From a virus (Duplodnaviria > Heunggongvirae > Uroviricota > Caudoviricetes > Thumleimavirales > Hafunaviridae): 64,000 nucleotides of DNA. The stretch is from IMG/VR virus record IMGVR_UViG_2974793440_000001, positions 12,822 to 76,821 of that record. One strand, written 5' to 3'. The translations under genes and the position numbers were made by a program. The notes beneath the pieces were generated by a model, which had not been told where the DNA came from, made no database searches, and saw only the letters and a program-made list of their open reading frames with translations. This document shows, one piece after another, positions 14,740-23,812 of this stretch (positions are counted from its first letter, which is position 1; every line of letters begins with the position of its first letter).

Positions 14740-14743
14740 TTCT

Positions 14744-14800
14744 CCTCACTCTATTAGACGTGAAGCAAGGACTTAAAGATACCTCTTTGAGTCTTTAGTC
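14744..14800 (-). promoter_or_regulatory. canonical promoter/leader element driving the 13903..14739 gene (TATA-like CTTTAAG, then CGTCTAATAGAGTGAGGAG, then ATG)
   Basis: CCTCACTCTATTAGACG...GACTTAAAGATACC...GAGTCTTTAG; the GGAGG just before the ATG is Shine-Dalgarno-like. Confidence 0.45.
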
Positions 14801-14809
14801 CCCTACGAT

Positions 14810-14938
14810 ATGATACCTGAACTCGCAAACACCCCACCCCTCGTGGCGTGGGCACTCGGATTCTTCATGGCATTGGCACTCAAACGTGGCCGAATCGCGG
14901 CCATCCTCGACCGGCTACTCCCGACAGAAAACTAACAA
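14810..14938 (+). CDS. small hydrophobic ORF (42 aa, one TM helix) between inverted promoter elements
   Basis: ATG 14810, translation MIPELANTPPLVAWALGFFMALALKRGRIAAILDRLLPTEN, TAA 14936-14938; not in the ORF track (<60 aa). Confidence 0.25.
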
Positions 14939-14953
14939 ACTAAGACTTAATTC

Positions 14954-14993
14954 GGCATCTTTAAGTCCTTAGTAGCCGTCTAATAGAGTGAGG
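14954..14993 (+). promoter_or_regulatory. canonical promoter/leader element, inverted copy, upstream of nrdJ (about 180-nt leader)
   Basis: GGCATCTTTAAGTCCTTAGTAGCCGTCTAATAGAGTGAGG. Confidence 0.45.
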
Positions 14994-15174
14994 AACTTCG
15001 TGACGAACGGAGTGACTTCACTCGAACATCCATACCCCGTATTACCCACTTAGGGTAGTACGGGGTGTTTTTCACTCTAAGTAGTTCGCACAGTAGAGGG
15101 TAGGATAGAGACAAACCCCTCGATGTGTTGAATCACTCTCAGTAGTTCACATACTATACTAATATACTATACAA

Positions 15175-17595
15175 ATGTCCGTAGTCACAACTGAAGCAGA
15201 CGAAACCGAACAGACCATCGAAACCCCAATCAAGACCGTCGAGGATTCTCTCTCCGTAGAAGACCGCCTCACCGACAACGCACTCCACGGTATTCTCCCC
15301 GCTCGCTACTTCCGCAAGGACTCAGAGGGCAACATCATCGAGGATGCTAACGACCTATTCCGACGAGTCGCGGAGAACGTCGCGGGGGCCGAGGTATCCG
15401 ACGAGGACTTCGAGAAGTGGGCCGACGAGTTCCAGTACCAGATGGAAACCCTCCGGTTCACCCCGAACAGCCCGACCCTGATGAACGCGGGAACCGACAT
15501 GAATCAACTGAGTGCGTGCTTCGTGCTGGAACCCCGCGACGATATGGAGGATATTTTCGAGACGGCTCAGCAGGCCGCGCTGACGTTCCAGAGCGGGGGC
15601 GGCGTCGGGTATGCCTTCTCTCACCTCCGACCCAAAGGAGCGTTTATCAATTCGACTGGTGGCGAAGCGAGCGGCCCGGTGAGCTTCATGCGGGTCTTCG
15701 ATGAGACGTGTAATCAGGTGAAGCAGGGCGGCAAGCGCCGTGGCGCTCAGATGGGGATTCTTCGCGCCGACCACCCTGACATTGGGCGATTCATCGTGGC
15801 AAAGAGGAACGAGGGGGAGTTTGCGAACTTCAACATCTCAGTCGCTACGACGGACAACTTCATCGAGGCAGTTGAGGCTCAGGACTCCTACACTCTATTC
15901 GACCCGGAGACGGACTACGAGGAGCCGTACATAGTCCGAGAGGCGTCGGCCCACTTCTACTCCCCGGAGTATCAGGACAACCCGCGTGACGCTTTTGACG
16001 ACGGCGAGGGCGCGGTCGTGGAGGAGAACCTGTGGCGGGACTACGCCGACGAGATTGAGTGCGAGCTGTTCGGGGAGCGCGTGACGCTCCGTGAGAAGTG
16101 GGAGGAACACGAGGGTCTTCGCCTCGAAGTGGGGGAGCCGATGGAGCTTCCCGCCGCGTTCATTTGGGACGTGATGATTGACGGGGCGTGGCGGAACGGT
16201 GAGCCGGGCCTGTTCAACTTCGAGGAGTCGAACCGCCAGCACTCCTTCGACGTGGACGAGTACCCCGAGTTCCGAATGAACGCGACTAACCCCTGCGCCG
16301 AGCAGATGCTCGTGGAGTACGAGGCGTGCAACCTCGGTCACATCAACCTGAGCTTGATGCTGAACGAGGACGCCCCGACCTACGACGAGTTCCTGAGCGA
16401 CAAGCTGGATTCAATCGCTACGGGCGACCTTTCCACCCGCGAAGCCGTGGAGTGGTACTTCGAGGAGGTCACGAACTTTGAAGACCTGAATCGAACCATC
16501 GAGGCGGGTGTCCGATTCCTCGATAACGTGGTCACGCAGTCGGACTTCCCCATCCCCGAGATTACCGAGCGCGTCAACGGGATGCGGAAAATCGGACTTG
16601 GCATTATGGGCTTCGCTCAGATGCTTTTCCAGATGGGGATTCCTTACGGGACGCAGGACTCCTACGAGGTCGCGCGGTGCGTGATGCGGTACATCGACCG
16701 GAAGGGAACGTGGTCGTCGCACAATCTCGCTAAGGAGCGCGGCGTGTTCTCCTACTGGGACAAGTCGAAGTACGCCAACCCGACCGAGTACCCCGAGTGG
16801 TTCGCGGCCCGCACCGGGCTTGACCCGAACGACCACGCTGGCGGGTTCTTCATCCGCAACCACAACATTACGACAATCGCCCCGACCGGCACGACCTCGA
16901 TGCTGGCGAACACGACGGGCGGGTGCGAGCCTGCCTACAACGTGGCGAACTTCAAGAACGTCTCCGAGGACATTCAGGGCGACGACCTGCTCGTGGAGTT
17001 TGACGACTACTTCCTTCGGACGCTCGAAGCGAACGGCCTCGATGTGGAGAGCATCAAGGAGGAAGCCGAGCGGCTGATGCGGAACAACGAGTTTGAGGGG
17101 GTCAACGACCTCTCCATCCCCGAGGAAATCGCTGAAATCTTCGTGACCACGCAGGACTTGTCCTCCGAACAGCACGGCCTGATGCAGAGAGCGTTTCAGG
17201 AGTTCTGCGACTCGGGTATCAGCAAGACGGTCAACCTCCCGAACAGCGCGACCCACGACGACGTGAGCGAAGCCTACCAGCTCGCGCTCGATGCGAACCG
17301 GCGCGGCGCGGTTATCAAGGGCCTCACCGTGTACCGGGACGGCTCTCGGGACGTTCAGGTTCTCACGACGCGCGTGGACAACAATCTGGACGACGACGGC
17401 GACCGCGACGACGACCTGCTCGAACTATACCTCAAGGGAGAGGTCAGCGAGAAGGCGGCGGTTCAGCTCGGTATCGTTGGCGAGGACGACGTGGGTTCGG
17501 ACACGCTCACCTGCCCGGAGTGCGGAGACGGTGAGCTTGAGAAAACAGACGACTGTGCGGTGTGCCCGGAGTGCTGGTACAGTCCGTGTAAGTAG
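15175..17595 (+). CDS. nrdJ: ribonucleotide reductase, class II (adenosylcobalamin-dependent)
   Basis: 806 aa; 'NPCAEQ' active-site motif, catalytic-Cys context and a C-terminal CxxC...CxxC zinc ribbon typical of NrdJ; no intein apparent. Confidence 0.9.
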   Translation: MSVVTTEADETEQTIETPIKTVEDSLSVEDRLTDNALHGILPARYFRKDSEGNIIEDANDLFRRVAENVAGAEVSDEDFEKWADEFQYQMETLRFTPNSPTLMNAGTDMNQLSACFVLEPRDDMEDIFETAQQAALTFQSGGGVGYAFSHLRPKGAFINSTGGEASGPVSFMRVFDETCNQVKQGGKRRGAQMGILRADHPDIGRFIVAKRNEGEFANFNISVATTDNFIEAVEAQDSYTLFDPETDYEEPYIVREASAHFYSPEYQDNPRDAFDDGEGAVVEENLWRDYADEIECELFGERVTLREKWEEHEGLRLEVGEPMELPAAFIWDVMIDGAWRNGEPGLFNFEESNRQHSFDVDEYPEFRMNATNPCAEQMLVEYEACNLGHINLSLMLNEDAPTYDEFLSDKLDSIATGDLSTREAVEWYFEEVTNFEDLNRTIEAGVRFLDNVVTQSDFPIPEITERVNGMRKIGLGIMGFAQMLFQMGIPYGTQDSYEVARCVMRYIDRKGTWSSHNLAKERGVFSYWDKSKYANPTEYPEWFAARTGLDPNDHAGGFFIRNHNITTIAPTGTTSMLANTTGGCEPAYNVANFKNVSEDIQGDDLLVEFDDYFLRTLEANGLDVESIKEEAERLMRNNEFEGVNDLSIPEEIAEIFVTTQDLSSEQHGLMQRAFQEFCDSGISKTVNLPNSATHDDVSEAYQLALDANRRGAVIKGLTVYRDGSRDVQVLTTRVDNNLDDDGDRDDDLLELYLKGEVSEKAAVQLGIVGEDDVGSDTLTCPECGDGELEKTDDCAVCPECWYSPCK

Positions 17596-17603
17596 AACTG
17601 GTC

Positions 17604-17954
17604 TTAGTTATCTCCGAACTCAAAGCGGTCGCCTTCATCCTCGGGGTTCATATCGAGAACGACGAAGGTGGCAACATCCATTTCGTCTGTTCTCCCACTC
17701 GTCGCTTCGACGTACAATCCATTCCCAATCGTTCCGGTATCGAATCCTTCTGAGGGAGCTGGCGATGGGTTGGCGTCTATGTCGTATCGGACGGTAAACG
17801 GATAGAGCGTCTGTCCATAGTCGTTTTCTTCTTCTTCAGAGTAGTCTAAGAACTCGATAGTAACGTCTTCTTCATCTAATTCTTCTCTCGCAACGAGAAA
17901 TGCTTGCTCACAGATGCTCTCACATTCTTCCGGCGAGGGCTTGAGCGGTTCCAT
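17604..17954 (-). CDS. hypothetical acidic protein
   Basis: 116 aa, convergent with the RNR gene. Confidence 0.35.
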   Translation of the reverse strand: MEPLKPSPEECESICEQAFLVAREELDEEDVTIEFLDYSEEEENDYGQTLYPFTVRYDIDANPSPAPSEGFDTGTIGNGLYVEATSGRTDEMDVATFVVLDMNPEDEGDRFEFGDN

Positions 17955-17992
17955 TACCGGAGTCTAAGTGTATCTCCGAATATAGTTCTTGG

Positions 17993-18045
17993 GTTTAAAT
18001 AGGCAATCCCCCCATCGGGCTTCGGCCCGGTGGGGGATTTTTGTG
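17993..18045 (+). promoter_or_regulatory. TATA-like TTTAAATA followed by a GC-rich 13-bp hairpin and a T tract
   Basis: ATCCCCCCATCGGGC-TTCG-GCCCGGTGGGGGAT then TTTTTG; lies upstream of tbp. Confidence 0.3.
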
Positions 18046-18225
18046 TAGTGGTGTGGAGAAACCCCCTCGATGCGTCTGTTCACGAGAAGAAAAGAACTCA
18101 GAAAACAGAGAGGTTCATCGTGCGGCGGGAACTGCGGCTCTCGAACGGTAGTCTTCTAAGGCTGTGTGAACACCGTTCAAGCAGTATGGTGGCTCGTCTC
18201 TCTAAGGACAACACGGAGGCATCCT

Positions 18226-18840
18226 ATGAGCGGTGACTCAGAAATAGAATCCTTACCCGATATCGAGGTGGCGAATATCGTTGCGTCGGGAAAACTAAAC
18301 CTCGAATTAGACTTAGCGGCGGTGGCCGAAGACCTCCGAGAACTGGATATAATTGAGGACGTGGAACACAGCCGACGGCAGGGGAATCGGCTTCTAATCC
18401 ATTTTAGAGAGGGAGAGGCGCTTGGTATTCTCGCCCCAACTGGTGTCTACGTCTTCACCGGGGTTGATACCCACGAGGAGATACACAGCGCCAAGGAACA
18501 ACTCTTTAGCGCCCTCGCCTCATTAGGAATTATCTCTGGTGTAGATGTGGACGAGTCCGAAGTAGTCGATGAATTTCAGGTTCAGAACGTCGTTTGTACC
18601 GCCGAGTTGAGTGACCACCTGAATCTAAATCTTAATGCGCTCGCCATCGGGCTGGGACTTGAAAACACCGAATATGAACCTGAACAGTTCCCCGGTCTAA
18701 TTTTCCGACCGAGTAGTAGCAGTTGCACGATACTCATATTTGCGTCTGGGAAAGTCGTAATTACGGGCGTCAGAGAGGCAGATACGGCCCAAACCGAGTT
18801 TGTCGAACTCCGCGAGAAATTGGAGTCTCTTCTGGGTTAG
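18226..18840 (+). CDS. tbp: TATA-box-binding protein homologue, virus-encoded
   Basis: Start reassigned to the internal ATG at 18226 (MSGDSEIESLPDIEVANIVASGKLNLELDL...); second repeat 'LNLNALAIGLGLENTEYEPEQFPGLIFR...ILIFASGKVVITG' is near-identical to the haloarchaeal TBP consensus; first repeat is divergent. Confidence 0.85.
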   Translation: MSGDSEIESLPDIEVANIVASGKLNLELDLAAVAEDLRELDIIEDVEHSRRQGNRLLIHFREGEALGILAPTGVYVFTGVDTHEEIHSAKEQLFSALASLGIISGVDVDESEVVDEFQVQNVVCTAELSDHLNLNLNALAIGLGLENTEYEPEQFPGLIFRPSSSSCTILIFASGKVVITGVREADTAQTEFVELREKLESLLG

Positions 18841-19073
18841 TCGTCCATACTCTCGGCTTCAAGGATTAGTTCGCCCTTCTCGGTCAGCGAGTAGATGATT
18901 CTGCGGTCATCCTCTTCCCCCTCGATGTAATTCTCTTCCTCAAGGTCGTGGAGATGTTCATAGACCGTACTACCGTGTAAATCGAGTTCCTTTGCGAGTT
19001 TGTAGCCGTGTCTCGGCTCCTCGGCTAATAGATTTAGAATCCGCAATTTGGGCTTAGTCAGCGAGATTCCCAT
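18837..19073 (-). CDS. winged-helix (PadR/ArsR-like) transcriptional regulator, candidate controller of the adjacent R-M genes
   Basis: Start reassigned to ATG at 19073 (MGISLTKPKLRILNLLAEEPRHGYKLAKELDLHGSTVYEHLHDLEEENYIEGE..., 78 aa); divergent from the MTase; perfect palindrome CCAATGCATTGG in the shared intergenic region. Confidence 0.55.
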   Translation of the reverse strand: MGISLTKPKLRILNLLAEEPRHGYKLAKELDLHGSTVYEHLHDLEEENYIEGEEDDRRIIYSLTEKGELILEAESMDD

Positions 19074-19086
19074 TACGGGGATTTTC

Positions 19087-19098
19087 CCAATGCATTGG
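19087..19098. promoter_or_regulatory. perfect 12-bp palindrome CCAATGCATTGG, candidate operator
   Basis: Read directly; lies between the divergent wHTH regulator and MTase genes in an AT-rich region. Confidence 0.4.
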
Positions 19099-19116
19099 CA
19101 TAGATGTTTACGCAGG

Positions 19117-19150
19117 ATTATTCCCTTGTATGGGGAAATATCTATGTACC
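19117..19150 (+). repeat. direct repeat copy 1 flanking the R-M cassette (core TTATTCCCTTGTATGGGGAAATATC)
   Basis: Matches 21545-21580 (TTATTCCCTTGTACGGAAATATC) in the same orientation. Confidence 0.5.
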
Positions 19151-19251
19151 TGCTTTGCTTATGGGAACACGAAGCAGAAAGACCTAATGATGGGATACAG
19201 AACGATGAGAAAGAATATGACGAGCCTGAACCTTGGGAGGTATAAGAACTA

Positions 19252-20586
19252 ATGTCTGACGAGATGGGCGATATCTCCTTCAGAGCGAACAAGCGTCTGC
19301 CGATTCACTCGTGGTTCGGGTATGTGGCTGGCTACGACGCTAAGTTCGTTCGGAGTGTTATCGAAGAATACTGCGACGAGCCTGACGGGGATTACACACC
19401 TACTGTCTTTGACCCTTATTGTGGTTCTGGAACGACGGTTGTGGAAGCGATAGACTCAGGCCGAGACGGAATCGGGACTGAAATCAACCCGTTTATGGCC
19501 TTCGTCGCTCGGGCGAAGACCGACTGGCACACCTACCCGAAGGATGTTCGGACGGGTGCGCGTGAGTTCCTAAACGACGTGAAGCCGCAGGTTCTCTCTG
19601 AGTTCCCGAACGCAACTCTCGATACCTTCTCCGGTCAGGGCGCTGTCGAGGACGTTCGCATTAAGGCAAAATCGGAGGTTCCCGAGTTAGCGAACATCGA
19701 GAACTGGTACACCGACTCTGTCCTTGAGCAACTTCGGATTCTCAAGGGCAACATTATGGAAATCGAAACAGAGGGACTTCGGATGCTGGGTCTCATCTCC
19801 TTTGCTTCCATCCTCGTGGACGTATCTAACGGTGGCTACGACCCATCTCTGGGCTACCGAAGAGACAGCGACGGTAACATCATCGAGAACGAAGCAAACG
19901 TCGCCAAGGCGTTCGAGGAGAAACTGATGAACGTCGTGGAAGACGTTGAGGAGAAGGTACTCAACCGGGATGATTCCAACTCCTTCGGGGATGCCCTGAT
20001 AATGAACTCCGACGGCGAGGAACACCCAGCTCTCCAAGACGAGTGCGTGGACTTGCTTGTAACGTCGCCGCCCTACGCGAACAATATGAACTACATCCGG
20101 CAAACCCGGCCCCATCTCTACTGGCTTGACTACTGGGCCGACCGTTCCCGTCGGAAGTTCGAGGATAACATGATGGGTTCGTATTGGCAGATTGTTCGCC
20201 GGGAAGAGGTCGAGATGAAGTATCCGACTGAGACGCTGGAATCGGTCACCGACGAGATTCGGAAACAGGAACCCGAGCGTGAAGAACTCGGTGGGCCGGG
20301 ATGGGCACGATACGTAAACCGCTACTTCAACGACCTTGGGAATGGGTTTGAGCAACAGTACCGGCTCCTCAAACCAGACTCCCACGCGGTGTATGTCGTC
20401 GGGAACAGCGTCATCAAGGACGTGAACGTTCCTGTCGGTGAAATCATCGCGGAGATGATTGAGGAACACTTCGACTTTGAGGTAGTCGGGTCACCCGTTC
20501 ACTCGTCCAATACCCGTGTCTCTTCGTCGCTTCGGACAGAAGACCTGACCGACGTTGTCGTAACTCTCTACAAGCCCGAACAATGA
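19252..20586 (+). CDS. amino-methyltransferase (DNA N6-adenine/N4-cytosine type)
   Basis: 444 aa; AdoMet motif I 'DPYCGSGTTVVEA', motif IV 'LLVTSPPYANN' (SPPY); lower GC than surrounding genes. Confidence 0.8.
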   Translation: MSDEMGDISFRANKRLPIHSWFGYVAGYDAKFVRSVIEEYCDEPDGDYTPTVFDPYCGSGTTVVEAIDSGRDGIGTEINPFMAFVARAKTDWHTYPKDVRTGAREFLNDVKPQVLSEFPNATLDTFSGQGAVEDVRIKAKSEVPELANIENWYTDSVLEQLRILKGNIMEIETEGLRMLGLISFASILVDVSNGGYDPSLGYRRDSDGNIIENEANVAKAFEEKLMNVVEDVEEKVLNRDDSNSFGDALIMNSDGEEHPALQDECVDLLVTSPPYANNMNYIRQTRPHLYWLDYWADRSRRKFEDNMMGSYWQIVRREEVEMKYPTETLESVTDEIRKQEPEREELGGPGWARYVNRYFNDLGNGFEQQYRLLKPDSHAVYVVGNSVIKDVNVPVGEIIAEMIEEHFDFEVVGSPVHSSNTRVSSSLRTEDLTDVVVTLYKPEQ

Positions 20587-20801
20587 ATCCAAAATTCCAG
20601 TCCGTGATTCGATGCCCGGAAACGGATTGTCACGGCGATATTGAAATCACAGAACGGGCCGAAGAACACGCGGGTCAAATCGTGAAAGGCACGATGGAGT
20701 GCCAATCCTGCGGGAAGGAGTACCGTATCCGCGACGGCTTCCCGATACTACTACCTGAATCGCTGGACGACGAAGCAGAGGACTTAGGCGAAGTCAGTTA
20801 G
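20583..20801 (+). CDS. Trm112-like zinc-ribbon protein (methyltransferase partner family)
   Basis: 72 aa; 'RCPETDCHGD...ECQSCGKEYRIRDGFPILLPESLDDE' matches the Trm112/DUF343 signature (Cx2C...Cx2C..YPIrDGIPvLL); ATGA overlap with the MTase stop. Confidence 0.55.
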   Translation: MNPKFQSVIRCPETDCHGDIEITERAEEHAGQIVKGTMECQSCGKEYRIRDGFPILLPESLDDEAEDLGEVS

Positions 20802-21515
20802 TTCCCCGTCTTCGGCCCCGTCAACCTCCTCTTCTGTCACAGACAGGCTCTTCACGTTTTCACGCCGCCACTCAGCGTCTACTTTTGGTTGCACTTCTTC
20901 TTCCCAAACGTTCGGCTCTGTATCGCGGCGCGGGAGGTCTCGCTTCTCGACCCAGCCACGCCCCGGATGAAGGGTGTCCCACACGGAGCGTTCCTGATTC
21001 GCTCTTCCCTTTCCGGGGTCGTGGTCACCGAAACCGTCGATGTACCGATTCCACCACGGCTTGTAGTACGAAATGAGGGTCTGTTCACAGTACCGAATCC
21101 AGATGGAACTGGTAATCAGGTACTTGACCCTGAAGTTGTCTATGTCCAGATTCTCGGCCTGCTCGATGCTCTTTCGGTGTTCGAGAAGTCGTTTGTAAAT
21201 TCCACGCCCGGTAGAGGATTCCAAGTGCGCTCCCCCGGTACGCGAGCCGGATGGCACGGCTTTGCCTATGTAAATCGGGAAGTCGTACTCCCACTTGTCG
21301 TTCGAGACCGGCTCGTAGTTCTCGTAGTCACCGAAGTAATAAAGGCCGTAAACACCACAGCCGTCGAAGGGGTTGTAGGGTTCAGGAAGTTCCTCGCCGT
21401 CGTGTTCCTCAAATTCTCGGATAATCGTTTTGTTTAGTTCTCGTTGGGAAATACCGAGGTCATCCAAAGGATTCCAAGCAGATACTATCTGGTCATCCGA
21501 CATTGGATGGGGCAA
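20784..21515 (-). CDS. GIY-YIG family nuclease, candidate restriction endonuclease (Eco29kI-like architecture)
   Basis: 243 aa; 'GVYGLYYFGDYENYEP...PIYIGKA' GIY...YIG motif with downstream R and E residues; convergent with and overlapping the MTase/Trm112 gene pair. Confidence 0.5.
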   Translation of the reverse strand: MPHPMSDDQIVSAWNPLDDLGISQRELNKTIIREFEEHDGEELPEPYNPFDGCGVYGLYYFGDYENYEPVSNDKWEYDFPIYIGKAVPSGSRTGGAHLESSTGRGIYKRLLEHRKSIEQAENLDIDNFRVKYLITSSIWIRYCEQTLISYYKPWWNRYIDGFGDHDPGKGRANQERSVWDTLHPGRGWVEKRDLPRRDTEPNVWEEEVQPKVDAEWRRENVKSLSVTEEEVDGAEDGELTDFA

Positions 21516-21544
21516 AACCCGCAGACGCCGAAAAGATTGAATCC

Positions 21545-21580
21545 GTTTATTCCCTTGTACGGAAATATCCCAATACAGTC
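21545..21580 (+). repeat. direct repeat copy 2 flanking the R-M cassette
   Basis: See 19117-19150. Confidence 0.5.
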
Positions 21581-21633
21581 AACGTGTACCAAGGGGATAG
21601 GAACTAAATTGGACGGCGACAGAGACACCGTTA

Positions 21634-21915
21634 ATGAGCAATCCGGGTCTGATAGAACGGGTTGAATCTATGTCAGCCGCGTTAAATTACGCTTTCAATA
21701 AGAAATGGGCTGACAGAGTGGATTCTAACGTCACCCACCAACTATATCACGAGAATGGGGTTGTCGCAATTCCCGCAGAGACTGAGAAAATTGAAATCGA
21801 CGTGAGTGACCCGGACGGCTTGATAGTAGTCAGAAAAGGGAGACAGAAGGAGGAATTTGCGAACGAAAAGGAGGCCGCCGAGTCCGCCTTAACAAAATTC
21901 TTCAACTCCGACTAA
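21634..21915 (+). CDS. hypothetical protein
   Basis: 93 aa ORF. Confidence 0.3.
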   Translation: MSNPGLIERVESMSAALNYAFNKKWADRVDSNVTHQLYHENGVVAIPAETEKIEIDVSDPDGLIVVRKGRQKEEFANEKEAAESALTKFFNSD

Positions 21916-21975
21916 TCTACAAGGCAACCCGCTCTGGGGTCGCGGGCATTCCCGAAAAAGCCTCGATGCGTTGAT

Positions 21976-22164
21976 TCAGGAGAAGATTTCTTCGGGAGAG
22001 ATGTTTCCGTTGAGATGCTGTTGTTTCTCCCACTCGATTTCGCCGGAGATTTTCCCGTAGAGTTCTGCGGCGATAGTTCGGTCTTCGTAGTCTCGGTCGG
22101 GATTGTCCTTGATGTGTTCTAACTCGTGTTCGAGGAAAGCGAGTTGCTTCGGGGTGAGTTCCAT
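21976..22164 (-). CDS. hypothetical small protein (62 aa from the internal ATG)
   Basis: MELTPKQLAFLEHELEHIKDNPDRDYEDR...; TTTATAAA TATA box about 30 nt upstream of the ATG on the minus strand (22190-22197). Confidence 0.35.
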   Translation of the reverse strand: MELTPKQLAFLEHELEHIKDNPDRDYEDRTIAAELYGKISGEIEWEKQQHLNGNISPEEIFS

Positions 22165-22388
22165 ATAAAGAGTCACGCACCGGGGGTTTATAAAACGGGG
22201 GTTGGTAGGGGGTTCTTCATTTCCCAATATGAGTTATGGATAGAAAGTGGTACACGCACGGCATCCGGGGCTATACCCCCTGTTTATTTATAAGCAGAGT
22301 TGGTAGTAGAGTGTAGAGAAGCACGCCAAGTGGTGTGAACCCGGCAAGGAGTGCCGGAAGCTTAGCCACTCCCCGCCGGAGGCGAGCG

Positions 22389-22435
22389 CGTCCTTGGTAA
22401 GGACGAGAGCGCGGGTTCAAATCCCGCCTCAGGCT
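22389..22435 (+). other. attP-like site: 3' portion (anticodon arm to 3' end) of a tRNA-Thr(GGU) gene, no 5' half
   Basis: Anticodon arm CGTCC-TTGGTAA-GGACG, T arm GCGGG-TTCAAAT-CCCGC, acceptor 3' strand CTCAGGC; no matching 5' acceptor or D arm upstream; lies immediately 5' of the integrase gene. Confidence 0.6.
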
Positions 22436-22618
22436 TTCACGGGCTACACGGCCTGTATTCCCACTTTGCGTGCTTCTTGGGAGCGAAACAATGTACCCCA
22501 AGAAAGCACTCTACCCACAAACGTACACCCCCGCGCCGTCTTGCGATTCCGAGAGTTGTCAGGACACTATAACGCTGAGTCACACGAAAGCGCGTTTCCT
22601 CAACGTGGGGGCCGGACG

Positions 22619-23812
22619 ATGAACCGCGACGACCCCCTCGACCAGATGGAAATGAGCGCGGCATCCGAGGATATACCACCCGCGCCCAAACCCATCGAGT
22701 TCGGCTTCCCACTCGTGAGCCAACGGTCGCGCGAAGACCTCGAAGCGTTCGGCCTCAATATGGTTCAGGACTACCACGATTTCAAAGAGGAAGTCCTGAC
22801 GTGGCTCGGCAACTACGGGAAGAACCCCGACAAGCACGAGGGACTGGCTCGAACCACGCTTGAGAGTACCCACTACAAGCTCGAAACCGTCTTCCGCTGG
22901 CTATGGAAATACGAGGGCCAATACACTACCAAGTTCACACCCGAACACGCAGATAAGTTCATCTCGCTGTTGAATCAAGCCGACTCGATGATTGACAGCA
23001 CGGTGCTTCACCACGCGAAGGATATTCGCCGGTACTTCCGCTACTGTAACCACGTTCAGGGGAAGGACTACGATTGGGAACCCGACCTCGAACTCTCTCA
23101 GTCAAACGGCGACGAGCGAGAGTACCTACGTCGCGCCGCGTTTGAGCCGCTGTATCAATCCGCGCTTCAACACTCGTCGGTCAAGAGCTACTACTCCTGT
23201 ACCCCGGAGGAACGACAGGAGTTGAAGTCCTACGTCTCTCAGCGGCTTCAAGTCCCCAAGTCGAAGGTCGGGGCGGAGGAGTTCAAAAAAGCAAACTCGT
23301 GGAAGTACCCATCTATGATTGCGGCTACGCTGGACACCGGGCTTCGACCCATCGAGGTCGGACGCGCCAAGGTGTCTTGGGTGAACCTCCAAGATAACGA
23401 GCTGAACATCCCGAAGGACGAGTCCACGAAAAACGAGGGCCATTGGAACTGCGCGATACAGAAGCGCACGGCGAAGGCGCTCGAACGTTGGATAGACGAG
23501 CGGGCGACGATGGAGAAGTACGACGGTCGGGACGAGCTGTGGCTCACGCAGAAAGCCCGCCCCTACAACTCCGACTCGTGTAACGGCCTGCTTGACCGAA
23601 TCATCGAGTCGGGGAACGTCCCGATTCCCGAGAACCAGAAGAACAAAATCTCGTGGTACAGCATCCGCCACGGAGTCGCAACCTATTGGGCGAACCACGT
23701 TGGCCCGCACCACGCAAAGGAACAACTCCGCCACAAGAGCGTGACGACGACGATGAAGTACCTCCACTCGGACTCGGACACCCGAGGGAGCGCGGTCGAA
23801 CAAATCTGGTAG
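22619..23812 (+). CDS. tyrosine recombinase / integrase
   Basis: Start reassigned to ATG 22619 (the ORF-track start at 22394 is a TTG that reads through the tRNA fragment); C-terminal catalytic region '...WYSIRHGVATYWANHVGPHHAKEQLRHKSVTTTMKYLH' (R..HxxR...Y). Confidence 0.8.
   Translation: MNRDDPLDQMEMSAASEDIPPAPKPIEFGFPLVSQRSREDLEAFGLNMVQDYHDFKEEVLTWLGNYGKNPDKHEGLARTTLESTHYKLETVFRWLWKYEGQYTTKFTPEHADKFISLLNQADSMIDSTVLHHAKDIRRYFRYCNHVQGKDYDWEPDLELSQSNGDEREYLRRAAFEPLYQSALQHSSVKSYYSCTPEERQELKSYVSQRLQVPKSKVGAEEFKKANSWKYPSMIAATLDTGLRPIEVGRAKVSWVNLQDNELNIPKDESTKNEGHWNCAIQKRTAKALERWIDERATMEKYDGRDELWLTQKARPYNSDSCNGLLDRIIESGNVPIPENQKNKISWYSIRHGVATYWANHVGPHHAKEQLRHKSVTTTMKYLHSDSDTRGSAVEQIW

Follow-up and report, generated by a model that had tools for sequence, protein, structure and literature searches.

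Background

Control of the establishment of restriction-modification (R-M) systems has so far been worked out almost wholly in bacteria, with controller (C) proteins of the Xre type. In circuits such as those of PvuII, Esp1396I, EcoRV and Kpn2I, a small dimeric DNA-binding protein encoded in the cassette uses a distal activating and a promoter-overlapping repressing site, and sometimes controls the promoter of the methyltransferase (MTase) gene as well (PMC12707154). Here, we report a computational analysis of a Type II R-M cassette carried by a 64,000-nucleotide stretch of viral DNA (hereafter, the window), which over this region is 100% identical to Haloarcula virus HJTV-2 (MZ334513.1; Hafunaviridae, Haloferacalesvirus; a window coordinate equals the MZ334513.1 coordinate minus 12821). 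We consider it likely that the region as a whole is a self-contained Type IIP R-M cassette of haloarchaeal origin, equipped with a controller-like circuit and with a helper protein for its MTase.

Two groups of CCGCGG-specific systems are the closest described relatives of the enzymes. Eco29kI and Cfr42I have the same nuclease family and active-site residues as the HJTV-2 enzyme, whereas they are paired with 5-methylcytosine (m5C) MTases, and Eco29kI is run by internal and antisense promoters and not by a controller protein (PMC3113576, PMC12707154). The DraI system of Deinococcus radiodurans is a rarity, since 310 other CCGCGG systems use m5C MTases while M.DraR1 was shown by experiment to be an N4-methylcytosine (m4C) MTase for CCGCGG (PMC10855626).

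The closest relatives of the putative helper are the Trm112 holoenzymes (Trm9, Trm11, Mtq2, Bud23, METTL5), in which a small zinc ribbon, in archaea a short form of ~60-70 aa (PMC6144793), binds an MTase. The translation apparatus is the target of all known Trm112 partners (PMC6144793, PMC7544214); they modify tRNA, rRNA or proteins, and a single housekeeping copy of Trm112 serves many MTases and is encoded apart from them.

The presence of the R-M pair in HJTV-2 is already published and is not new. Liu et al. (2021; PMC8651126, S1 text) described the Eco29kI-type nuclease and its cognate MTase, reported the absence of CCGCGG from the genome and the horizontal gain of the R-M genes, and proposed that systems of this kind may serve to break down the host chromosome or competing elements. 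In the same paper, gp45 is placed in the RNA metabolism category, as a protein that activates host MTases of tRNA and release factors, and neither a controller nor operators are mentioned. What the present computational work adds is the predicted operator architecture of a non-canonical, archaeal-type controller, evidence tying a Trm112 paralog to a DNA MTase, and a cargo hotspot together with what appear to be the true junctions of the acquired segment.

Organisation of the cassette and its homologues

The four core genes of the cassette are as follows.

18837-19073, minus strand: 78-aa PadR/ArsR-type winged helix-turn-helix (wHTH) regulator (gp42), putative controller; PadR 7e-13
19252-20586, plus strand: alpha-class amino-MTase (gp44); N6_N4_Mtase 2.6e-13, PADLOC MTase_II 1.8e-37
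20583-20801, plus strand: 72-aa Trm112-family zinc ribbon (gp45); NCBIfam Trm112_arch 1.7e-11
20784-21503, minus strand: Eco29kI-family GIY-YIG restriction endonuclease (gp46); RE_Eco29kI 9e-56, PDB 3MX1 1.5e-36

The original prediction, made from the letters of the window, had proposed a compact four-gene Type II R-M cassette, and the PadR, N6_N4_Mtase, Trm112_arch and RE_Eco29kI matches bear this out. The GenBank labels read winged HTH for gp42, N4-cytosine MTase for gp44, Trm112 family protein for gp45 and Eco29kI restriction endonuclease for gp46. Both overlaps described in that prediction are present: the start of the Trm112-like gene overlaps the MTase stop as ATGA, and the 3' end of the nuclease gene overlaps the Trm112-like 3' end by 18 nt. 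The 243-aa nuclease open reading frame (ORF) was rightly assigned, as its Pfam match shows, but its start was placed too far upstream, the conserved start being the ATG at 21503 and not the TTG at 21515.

Homologous cassettes were gathered with the MTase as a handle, their contexts being recovered mostly through exact-protein look-ups. For the MTase, 25 close haloarchaeal homologs (72-94% identity) were found, ahead of bacterial ones at ~33%, and the recovered contexts comprise a Halarchaeum chromosome, a Haloplanus metagenome-assembled genome and about ten metagenomic contigs. The order wHTH (minus), MTase (plus), Trm112-like (plus), nuclease (minus) recurs in 12 independent loci with unrelated flanking genes. 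The family is rare: GTDB genomes yielded one cassette locus and JGI metagenomes two, and a search of IMG/VR viral contigs gave no match. DNA homology to the cellular cassettes covers 18250-21618, from the TATA-box-binding protein (TBP) gene described below to the nuclease promoter, and this span is, as judged from these alignments, the conserved mobile unit.

Putative operator boxes and the proposed control circuit

The wHTH protein is 66-86% identical in 10 loci, in each of which its gene is divergent from the MTase gene. Its best Pfam matches are PadR, HTH_5/ArsR and other winged-helix families, and no HTH_3 (Xre-type) match was returned by the Pfam search.

Three sequence features upstream of the two minus-strand genes had been noticed from the window by itself: a 12-bp palindrome, CCAATGCATTGG, at 19087-19098, which was thought to look like an operator and which holds the only ATGCAT in the 64 kb, and a pair of ~25-bp direct repeats, TTATTCCCTTGTATGGGGAAATATC (19118-19142) and TTATTCCCTTGTACGG-AAATATC (21547-21570). 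The distance between the repeats is 2429 nt and that between the wHTH and nuclease ATG codons 2430 nt; both copies are equidistant from a minus-strand start codon. Alignments of upstream regions, followed by an iterated position weight matrix (PWM), resolved the two repeats and the 12-bp palindrome into three copies of one 16-bp palindromic box with the consensus TTCCAATGCATTGGAA.

19085-19100, unstranded: proximal operator box, holding the 12-bp palindrome; -27 to -12 from the wHTH ATG, PWM 20.5 bits
19121-19136, unstranded: distal operator box, core of repeat copy 1; -63 to -48 from the wHTH ATG, PWM 19.1 bits
21550-21565, unstranded: nuclease operator box, core of repeat copy 2; -62 to -47 from the nuclease ATG, PWM 15.4 bits

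The position of the distal box is kept in 11/11 loci with an intact wHTH gene and that of the proximal box in 10/11, in keeping with the operator-like character first ascribed to the palindrome. At the nuclease gene, the box starts at -61 to -63 from the ATG in nine of the 10 loci with nuclease-upstream boxes, and further boxes often lie 18 nt upstream of it. In the 64-kb window, the matrix has three matches of at least 12 bits, all at cassette promoters, while chance expectation is ~1 match at this threshold and 0.1 at 15 bits or more. Matches in the other loci are limited to the same two promoter regions, bar one inside the nuclease gene of L015. The PWM scan found no box in L006, where the wHTH gene is a pseudogene, or in L012, which has no wHTH gene and whose DNA homology to the window (19170-21545 only) leaves out all three boxes. 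The gene identities, the synteny, the box positions and the co-occurrence of boxes with the regulator gene are direct observations, and the boxes are best read as operators of a controller-like circuit, with the wHTH protein as their putative binder.

Two loci deserve separate description. On the Halarchaeum sp. CBA1220 chromosome (L006 4621-4841), a frameshift has left the wHTH gene in two pieces that are out of frame with each other, and no box survives, while the MTase, Trm112-like and nuclease genes are intact; the locus looks like a natural controller-less derivative of the cassette. A contig of Halorubrum tebenquichense (L025 3317-5000, AOJD01000024) holds a wHTH homolog of 68% identity that is divergent from a different R-M-like operon, made up of two N6_N4 MTase genes and a gene for a 290-aa protein without a family match, which may be a new nuclease. 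Its control region keeps ACATAG-AAATTT and a diverged box, CCTACGCATAGG. A direct PWM scan of this variant cassette gave no match, and the extension of the box beyond the core family was made by eye. With its related control region, L025 indicates that the wHTH gene and the control region behave as a module attached to R-M genes.

Three further conserved elements lie next to the boxes.

19101-19113, minus strand: conserved GCGTAAACAnCTAT element between the two wHTH-promoter boxes (conserved alignment columns)
19142-19147, plus strand: near-invariant CTATGT (ACATAG on the minus strand) adjoining the distal box (alignment columns)
21528-21544, minus strand: conserved GGATTCAATCTTTTCGG element, partly conserved also in box-less loci

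In leaderless or short-leader haloarchaeal transcripts, the transcription factor B (TFB) recognition element and TATA box (BRE/TATA) are expected ~25-40 nt upstream of the ATG, and both the GCGTAAACAnCTAT and the GGATTCAATCTTTTCGG elements lie at that distance from theirs. From its position ~30 nt upstream of the ATG, we infer that the GCGTAAACAnCTAT element is the BRE/TATA of the wHTH promoter; the GGATTCAATCTTTTCGG element would likewise be the core promoter of the nuclease gene. CTATGT is a candidate TATA-like element of the MTase promoter and is kept, as ACATAG, in the H. tebenquichense variant as well.

Placed against these elements, the boxes suggest a circuit in which the PadR-type winged-helix protein would act as a controller that binds the 16-bp box TTCCnATGCATnGGAA. 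The boxes at -63 (wHTH) and -62 (nuclease) would lie just upstream of BRE/TATA, a typical position for an archaeal activator, and the box at -27, between TATA and the regulator start codon, would be in a repressor position; the distal box would also touch the divergent MTase promoter. The MTase and its Trm112-like partner would then be made first, the regulator would build up and switch on its own gene and the nuclease gene, and at high level it would shut off its own gene.

The arrangement resembles the bacterial C-protein circuits in having a small, putatively dimeric DNA-binding protein in the cassette, a palindromic operator pair in its own promoter (distal and promoter-overlapping, here -63/-27 in 10/11 loci), a further operator at the promoter of the nuclease gene and, facing the MTase gene, a shared divergent control region, a layout that would be expected for delayed nuclease expression. 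It differs in that C proteins have an Xre-type HTH while the present protein is a PadR/ArsR winged helix, and in that a C gene lies directly upstream of the nuclease gene and is co-transcribed with it, whereas here the two are 1.7 kb apart with the MTase and Trm112-like genes on the opposite strand between them, and the nuclease has a separate promoter 2.4 kb away with its own box copy. The promoters are moreover of the archaeal TBP/TFB type. The wHTH protein would thus work like a C protein but fails family membership on two defining features.

Two other explanations of the boxes have to be weighed against an operator function. In the original prediction the ~25-bp repeats were the termini of a mobile R-M island, as a target duplication or attachment (att) sites. 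They are indeed present where they had been described and near-identical, and the region is low in GC and absent from the sister viruses. They do not, however, flank the unit: copy 1 is internal, between the wHTH and MTase genes, so that the wHTH gene falls outside the pair. Homology to the sister viruses breaks at 18044 and 21961 and homology to other cassettes runs past both repeats; the same boxes, at the same start-codon distances, are found in cassettes with unrelated flanks; and HRTV-8, which represents the empty site, carries one copy of a different 33-nt sequence. We give almost no credence to this model, which is refuted as stated, the repeats being better explained as operator sites internal to the cassette. 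The boxes could instead be unusual basal promoter elements, read by the cassette TBP paralog or by host TFB, with the wHTH protein regulating something else. A divergent TBP gene is attached to the cassette in 7/13 loci and the cassette promoters are without canonical TTTAWA boxes, both of which would suit such elements; but the boxes are fully conserved in the TBP-less loci L007, L016 and L018, are missing in just those loci (L006, L012) whose wHTH gene is disrupted or lacking, and form a 16-bp dyad that fits the target of a dimeric PadR/ArsR winged-helix protein and not that of TBP. This makes the basal-element explanation very improbable, and the boxes are treated below as putative operators of the wHTH protein.

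Some smaller features of the control region were also recorded. The gene annotated as gp43 (19130-19252) is a doubtful one, its full ORF being interrupted by stops in close homologs, where just a short uORF-like part at the C-terminal end is kept. A short upstream ORF at 19190-19254 (...RTMRKNMT..RYKN*) ends as TAATG on the MTase start codon and is kept in six close loci, unlike the longer gp43 ORF; it may serve as a leader for translational coupling, or its conservation may simply be that of the 5' untranslated DNA. A scan for bacterial sigma-70 promoters and terminators, a model not suited to archaeal promoters, flagged only a hairpin at 18009-18036.

A Trm112 paralog coupled to the MTase

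The 72-aa product of gp45 belongs to the Trm112 family by both sequence and predicted fold. Its family profile matches Archaeoglobus fulgidus Trm112 (6zxw_H) at 2e-9, and a Foldseek search with its AlphaFold2 (AF2) model, which has a predicted local distance difference test (pLDDT) score of 81, returned 6zxw_H with a template modelling (TM) score of 0.82 and a root mean square deviation of 1.7 Å, and Haloferax volcanii Trm112 (6f5z) with a TM score of 0.79. In the family alignment, C11, C16, C40 and C43 are invariant, and the segment RIRDGFPILLP is conserved, with G52 and P54 invariant. The hydrophobic residues of the H. volcanii Trm112-MTase interface are M1, L5, I8, L9, P12 and I50-P55 (PMC6144793), and their counterparts are conserved here as M1, F5, V8, I9, P12 and FPILLP. 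The protein therefore has in common with the Trm112 holoenzymes the small zinc ribbon of the archaeal short form, the N-terminal hydrophobic residues of the MTase interface and the C-terminal DG(F/I)P-LLP strand, and by sequence comparison it is a diverged paralog of the housekeeping archaeal Trm112.

What sets it apart is its setting. Whereas the known partners of Trm112 act in translation and are encoded away from it, this paralog is translationally coupled to a single DNA MTase in an R-M cassette. The gene directly follows the MTase gene in 12/12 loci with the region present, whether or not a wHTH or TBP gene accompanies them, with the ATGA overlap in eight of the 12 and a gap of at most 4 nt in the others. 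A search of 5.8 billion proteins returned only 16 close relatives, all of the cassette type. No Trm112-like gene stands beside the bacterial MTase homologs examined, nor in the other wHTH-linked R-M cassette, that of H. tebenquichense.

From the synteny and the translational coupling, we lean slightly towards regarding the protein as a dedicated partner of the DNA MTase, contrary to the published assignment to translation. It would solubilise or activate the MTase, as Trm112 does for Trm9, Trm11 and Mtq2, and a Trm112-type helper for a DNA methylase seems so far unreported. A stronger reading, which we put forward tentatively as possible rather than probable, is that the Trm112-like protein is an obligate subunit of an R-M N4-cytosine MTase, the first such holoenzyme. 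In a wider version of it, the cassette would be a portable expression kit, combining a winged-helix controller with archaeal-promoter operators, an MTase chaperone and often a TBP paralog, and thereby enabling a toxic R-M module to gain a foothold in haloarchaeal hosts and viruses that are new to it. If the stronger reading is true, a viral gene published as a translation modulator would belong to R-M machinery, and the Trm112 activator network would extend from the translation apparatus to DNA modification.

Nuclease, methyltransferase and role in the virus

Aligned to 3MX1, the nuclease has equivalents of the catalytic residues Y49, Y76, R104, H108, E142 and N154 of Eco29kI, found in the segments VYGLYY, PIYIGKA, R..EH, CEQ and WWN; the roles of these active-site residues are described in PMC1952068. 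The PADLOC MTase_II match to the MTase is full-length (residues 12-410). Motif I, DPYCGSGTT, is at residues 54-62 and motif IV is TSPPY, with SPPY at 272-275, and the motif order (I, target recognition domain, IV) is that of the alpha class.

The best plasmid match of the MTase is an MTase of D. radiodurans pCP1 (31% identity over 95% of the length, E = 4e-65), whose gene lies ~10 ORFs from an Eco29kI-family nuclease gene, as published for M.DraR1 and R.DraR1. As identity and arrangement match the published pair (PMC10855626), we take it to be M.DraR1. The HJTV-2 nuclease is 49% identical to R.DraR1. The HJTV-2 and DraI systems are thus alike in joining an Eco29kI-family GIY-YIG nuclease to an alpha-class SPPY N4-cytosine MTase in place of the usual m5C MTase. 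They are unlike in layout, for the DraI genes are ~10 ORFs apart on pCP1 and the pCP1 MTase has no adjacent wHTH regulator or Trm112-like gene, while the HJTV-2 genes form a tight, convergent and overlapping cassette with a regulator and putative operators. Homology of MTase and nuclease to the DraI pair gives two independent lines towards CCGCGG and m4C, which do not amount to proof. By this homology the nuclease is predicted to cut CCGC/GG and the MTase to make m4C in CCGCGG, and the two would share this site, with methylation blocking cleavage.

CCGCGG is absent from the window (~30 copies expected). Its depletion was nevertheless dropped as a test of specificity, since 43 of the 64 six-base palindromes are wholly missing from the 64 kb in any case, among them CTCGAG (~71 expected) and TTCGAA (~46 expected by the Markov model); extreme palindrome avoidance is a known trait of the HF1 group (PMC7230728). 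With no CCGCGG in the viral genome, the system cannot harm the virus, and it would act on host DNA or on co-infecting or competing elements. That the regulator, the operators and the MTase partner are all intact speaks for selection on the circuit as a whole and not on the nuclease alone; candidate outcomes are host protection until lysis, competitor exclusion or addiction. The ideas of host takeover and competitor exclusion, which the original prediction had raised, were already in print (PMC8651126).

For both the Trm112-like protein and the cassette as a whole, a different role deserves consideration. On the published reading, gp45 is an accessory factor of the virus that modulates translation by activating host tRNA or release-factor MTases, and it is only incidentally part of the cassette. 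Family membership by sequence and fold, the translational nature of all known partners (PMC6144793, PMC7544214) and the classification by Liu et al. (PMC8651126) all favour it. Yet in 12 loci, most of them cellular or metagenomic with non-viral flanks, the gene is never apart from the DNA MTase gene, to which it is coupled by ATGA, and the protein, which falls below the equivalog cutoff of housekeeping Trm112, has just the 16 cassette-type relatives. We therefore hold an incidental location to be improbable and retain the dedicated MTase partner. The cassette, for its part, could be a host-shutoff device, in which the nuclease degrades the CCGCGG-rich host chromosome for nucleotide recycling while the other genes are passengers. 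EndoII of phage T4, which is a GIY-YIG nuclease, degrades host DNA. A virus without CCGCGG needs no methylation, and degradation of host or competitor DNA is what Liu et al. propose (PMC8651126). Against passengers stands the integrity of all four genes, with conserved starts, operators and coupling, given that unselected passengers would decay as the wHTH gene did in L006. We judge a shutoff device to be rather unlikely; it concerns the biological role and not the mechanism, and is compatible with a self-contained, controller-regulated R-M cassette.

Several points weigh against such a cassette as proposed here. The wHTH protein is not homologous to canonical C proteins, and its gene and the nuclease gene are not transcribed together. 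Because the PWM was built from the very promoter regions that it then matched, the independent tests are confined to the lack of matches elsewhere and the joint loss of boxes and wHTH gene. Which boxes count as activator sites and which as repressor sites hangs on our own assignment of atypical TATA-like elements, and every binding and regulatory step, from DNA binding to activation and repression, is inferred from computation, as are complex formation between the Trm112-like protein and the MTase, the site recognised and what the system does during infection. The CCGCGG specificity is based on homology only; in 31.7 kb of cellular cassettes the site was seen once against 4-12 expected, a depletion that is unspecific since other GC-rich palindromes are depleted there too. 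The Trm112_arch score is 44 bits against an NCBIfam equivalog cutoff of 77. The AF2 model of the MTase, built from a 24-sequence alignment, is poor (pLDDT 57) and for this reason was dropped for fold searches and for locating a Trm112-binding surface. Retention of the MTase is hard to explain if the nuclease merely destroys host DNA.

The proposal nonetheless offers a concrete regulatory model for archaeal R-M, with a PadR-type controller and three mapped, predicted operator sites at archaeal promoters. Should the model be confirmed, the cassette would provide haloarchaeal genetics with a compact tool that regulates itself.

The acquired segment and a cargo hotspot

The homology shared with HJTV-3, the closest relative, ends at 18044 and picks up again at 21961. 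The acquired segment, as delimited by this alignment, is ~18045-21960 and holds the TBP gene, the four core genes, gp47 and gp48. The inference of a horizontally acquired island thus holds in that a swapped segment lies inside a virus genome, but the segment is larger than had been supposed, with other junctions and with the TBP gene and gp48 included. The lower GC content that had been reported is real and modest: the originally proposed region has 52.8% and the swapped segment 52.1%, compared with 56.8% in the window as a whole, which puts them in the lowest 3% of same-size windows. Two additional genes lie in the segment, and a repeat sits at its two junctions.

18226-18840, plus strand: divergent TBP gene (gp41); Pfam TBP 1e-32
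21634-21915, plus strand: gp48, 93 aa, divergent from the nuclease gene, island cargo; no family match
18058-18090, plus strand: left-hand junction copy of an imperfect 33-nt direct repeat, a remnant of the gp49 3' end, at the left edge of the HJTV-2-specific island
21954-21986, plus strand: right junction copy of the 33-nt repeat, comprising the last codons of gp49, the stop and the 3' untranslated region

The TBP gene, labelled TATA-box-binding protein in GenBank, converges on the wHTH gene with a 4-nt overlap, and its NCBIfam TBP subfamily match (149 bits) is below the cutoff. A homologous TBP gene occupies the same position in six cellular or metagenomic loci, L010, L014, L015 (a fragment), L017, L019 and L020, which makes it a frequent fifth member of the cassette (7/13 loci). 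Homologs of gp48 with 43-48% identity lie at the same position in L013 and L015.

The two junction copies are identical at 26/33 positions. HRTV-8 holds a single 33-nt copy (L003 3551-3583) onto which both window flanks align. The near-empty site of this related halovirus thus carries this sequence and not one ~25-bp repeat as had been anticipated. The 33-nt pair is, on this alignment, a flanking-repeat signature of the kind originally sought, although its coordinates differ and the unit that it encloses is larger. Its left copy agrees with the sequence in HRTV-8, its right copy with that in HJTV-3.

An 11-nt junction core, CCTCGATGCGT, was considered as an att site and rejected: with at most one mismatch it occurs 29 times in the window (e.g. 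at 2906, 15118, 18065, 21961, 26019 and 39884), mostly within genes, against 2.1 expected from dinucleotide shuffles. Because the core is so common, only the three-way junction alignment with HRTV-8 supports a duplication. Some copies share an extended GAAAC-CCTCGATGCGT-yGATT context, and the excess may reflect codon or k-mer skew from the palindrome purge, or a real dispersed motif.

At the same position, HJTV-3, HRTV-15 and HSTV-3 carry a type IIG R-M enzyme together with a zinc finger and an L21e-like protein; in HRTV-9 a type IIG enzyme is joined by a different TBP, and HRTV-8 is nearly empty. Such varied cargo identifies the locus between the ribonucleotide reductase gene and the tRNA-Thr/integrase as a cargo hotspot, at which viruses of the Hafunaviridae (Haloferacalesvirus) swap alternative R-M modules, which in two cases bring a TBP gene along. 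The cassette would move between haloarchaeal genomes, usually together with a divergent TBP gene, and in HJTV-2 it would have replaced the type IIG R-M cargo of the sister viruses.

Among 50,697 phage records, related TBP genes were found only in HJTV-2 and HRTV-9 (L024 3119-3658). The two proteins are 38% identical, and both genes are in the same hotspot next to R-M genes (Eco29kI-type and type IIG, respectively).

The L21e-like SH3 protein and the small zinc finger always stand beside type IIG cargo (L002 8610-8989 in HJTV-3; HRTV-15, HSTV-3). The former was read as a ribosomal protein by Liu et al. (PMC8651126); by analogy with gp45, both may be accessory R-M parts and not translation factors.

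An Rfam scan of 17500-23000 detected nothing but the tRNA-Thr. This annotated tRNA-Thr(GGT), at 22353-22435 between the hotspot and the integrase gene, scores 37 bits with Rfam but was not detected by ARAGORN; at 83 nt, it is of a length that points to an intron or insertion. Short AT-rich repeats at 14742-14994, upstream of the ribonucleotide reductase gene, match several intergenic sites of HJTV-3 (L002 1590-1642, 13914-13953 and 16223-16279). They are probably the class I/II intergenic promoter repeats of HF1/HF2 and are unrelated to the cassette boxes.

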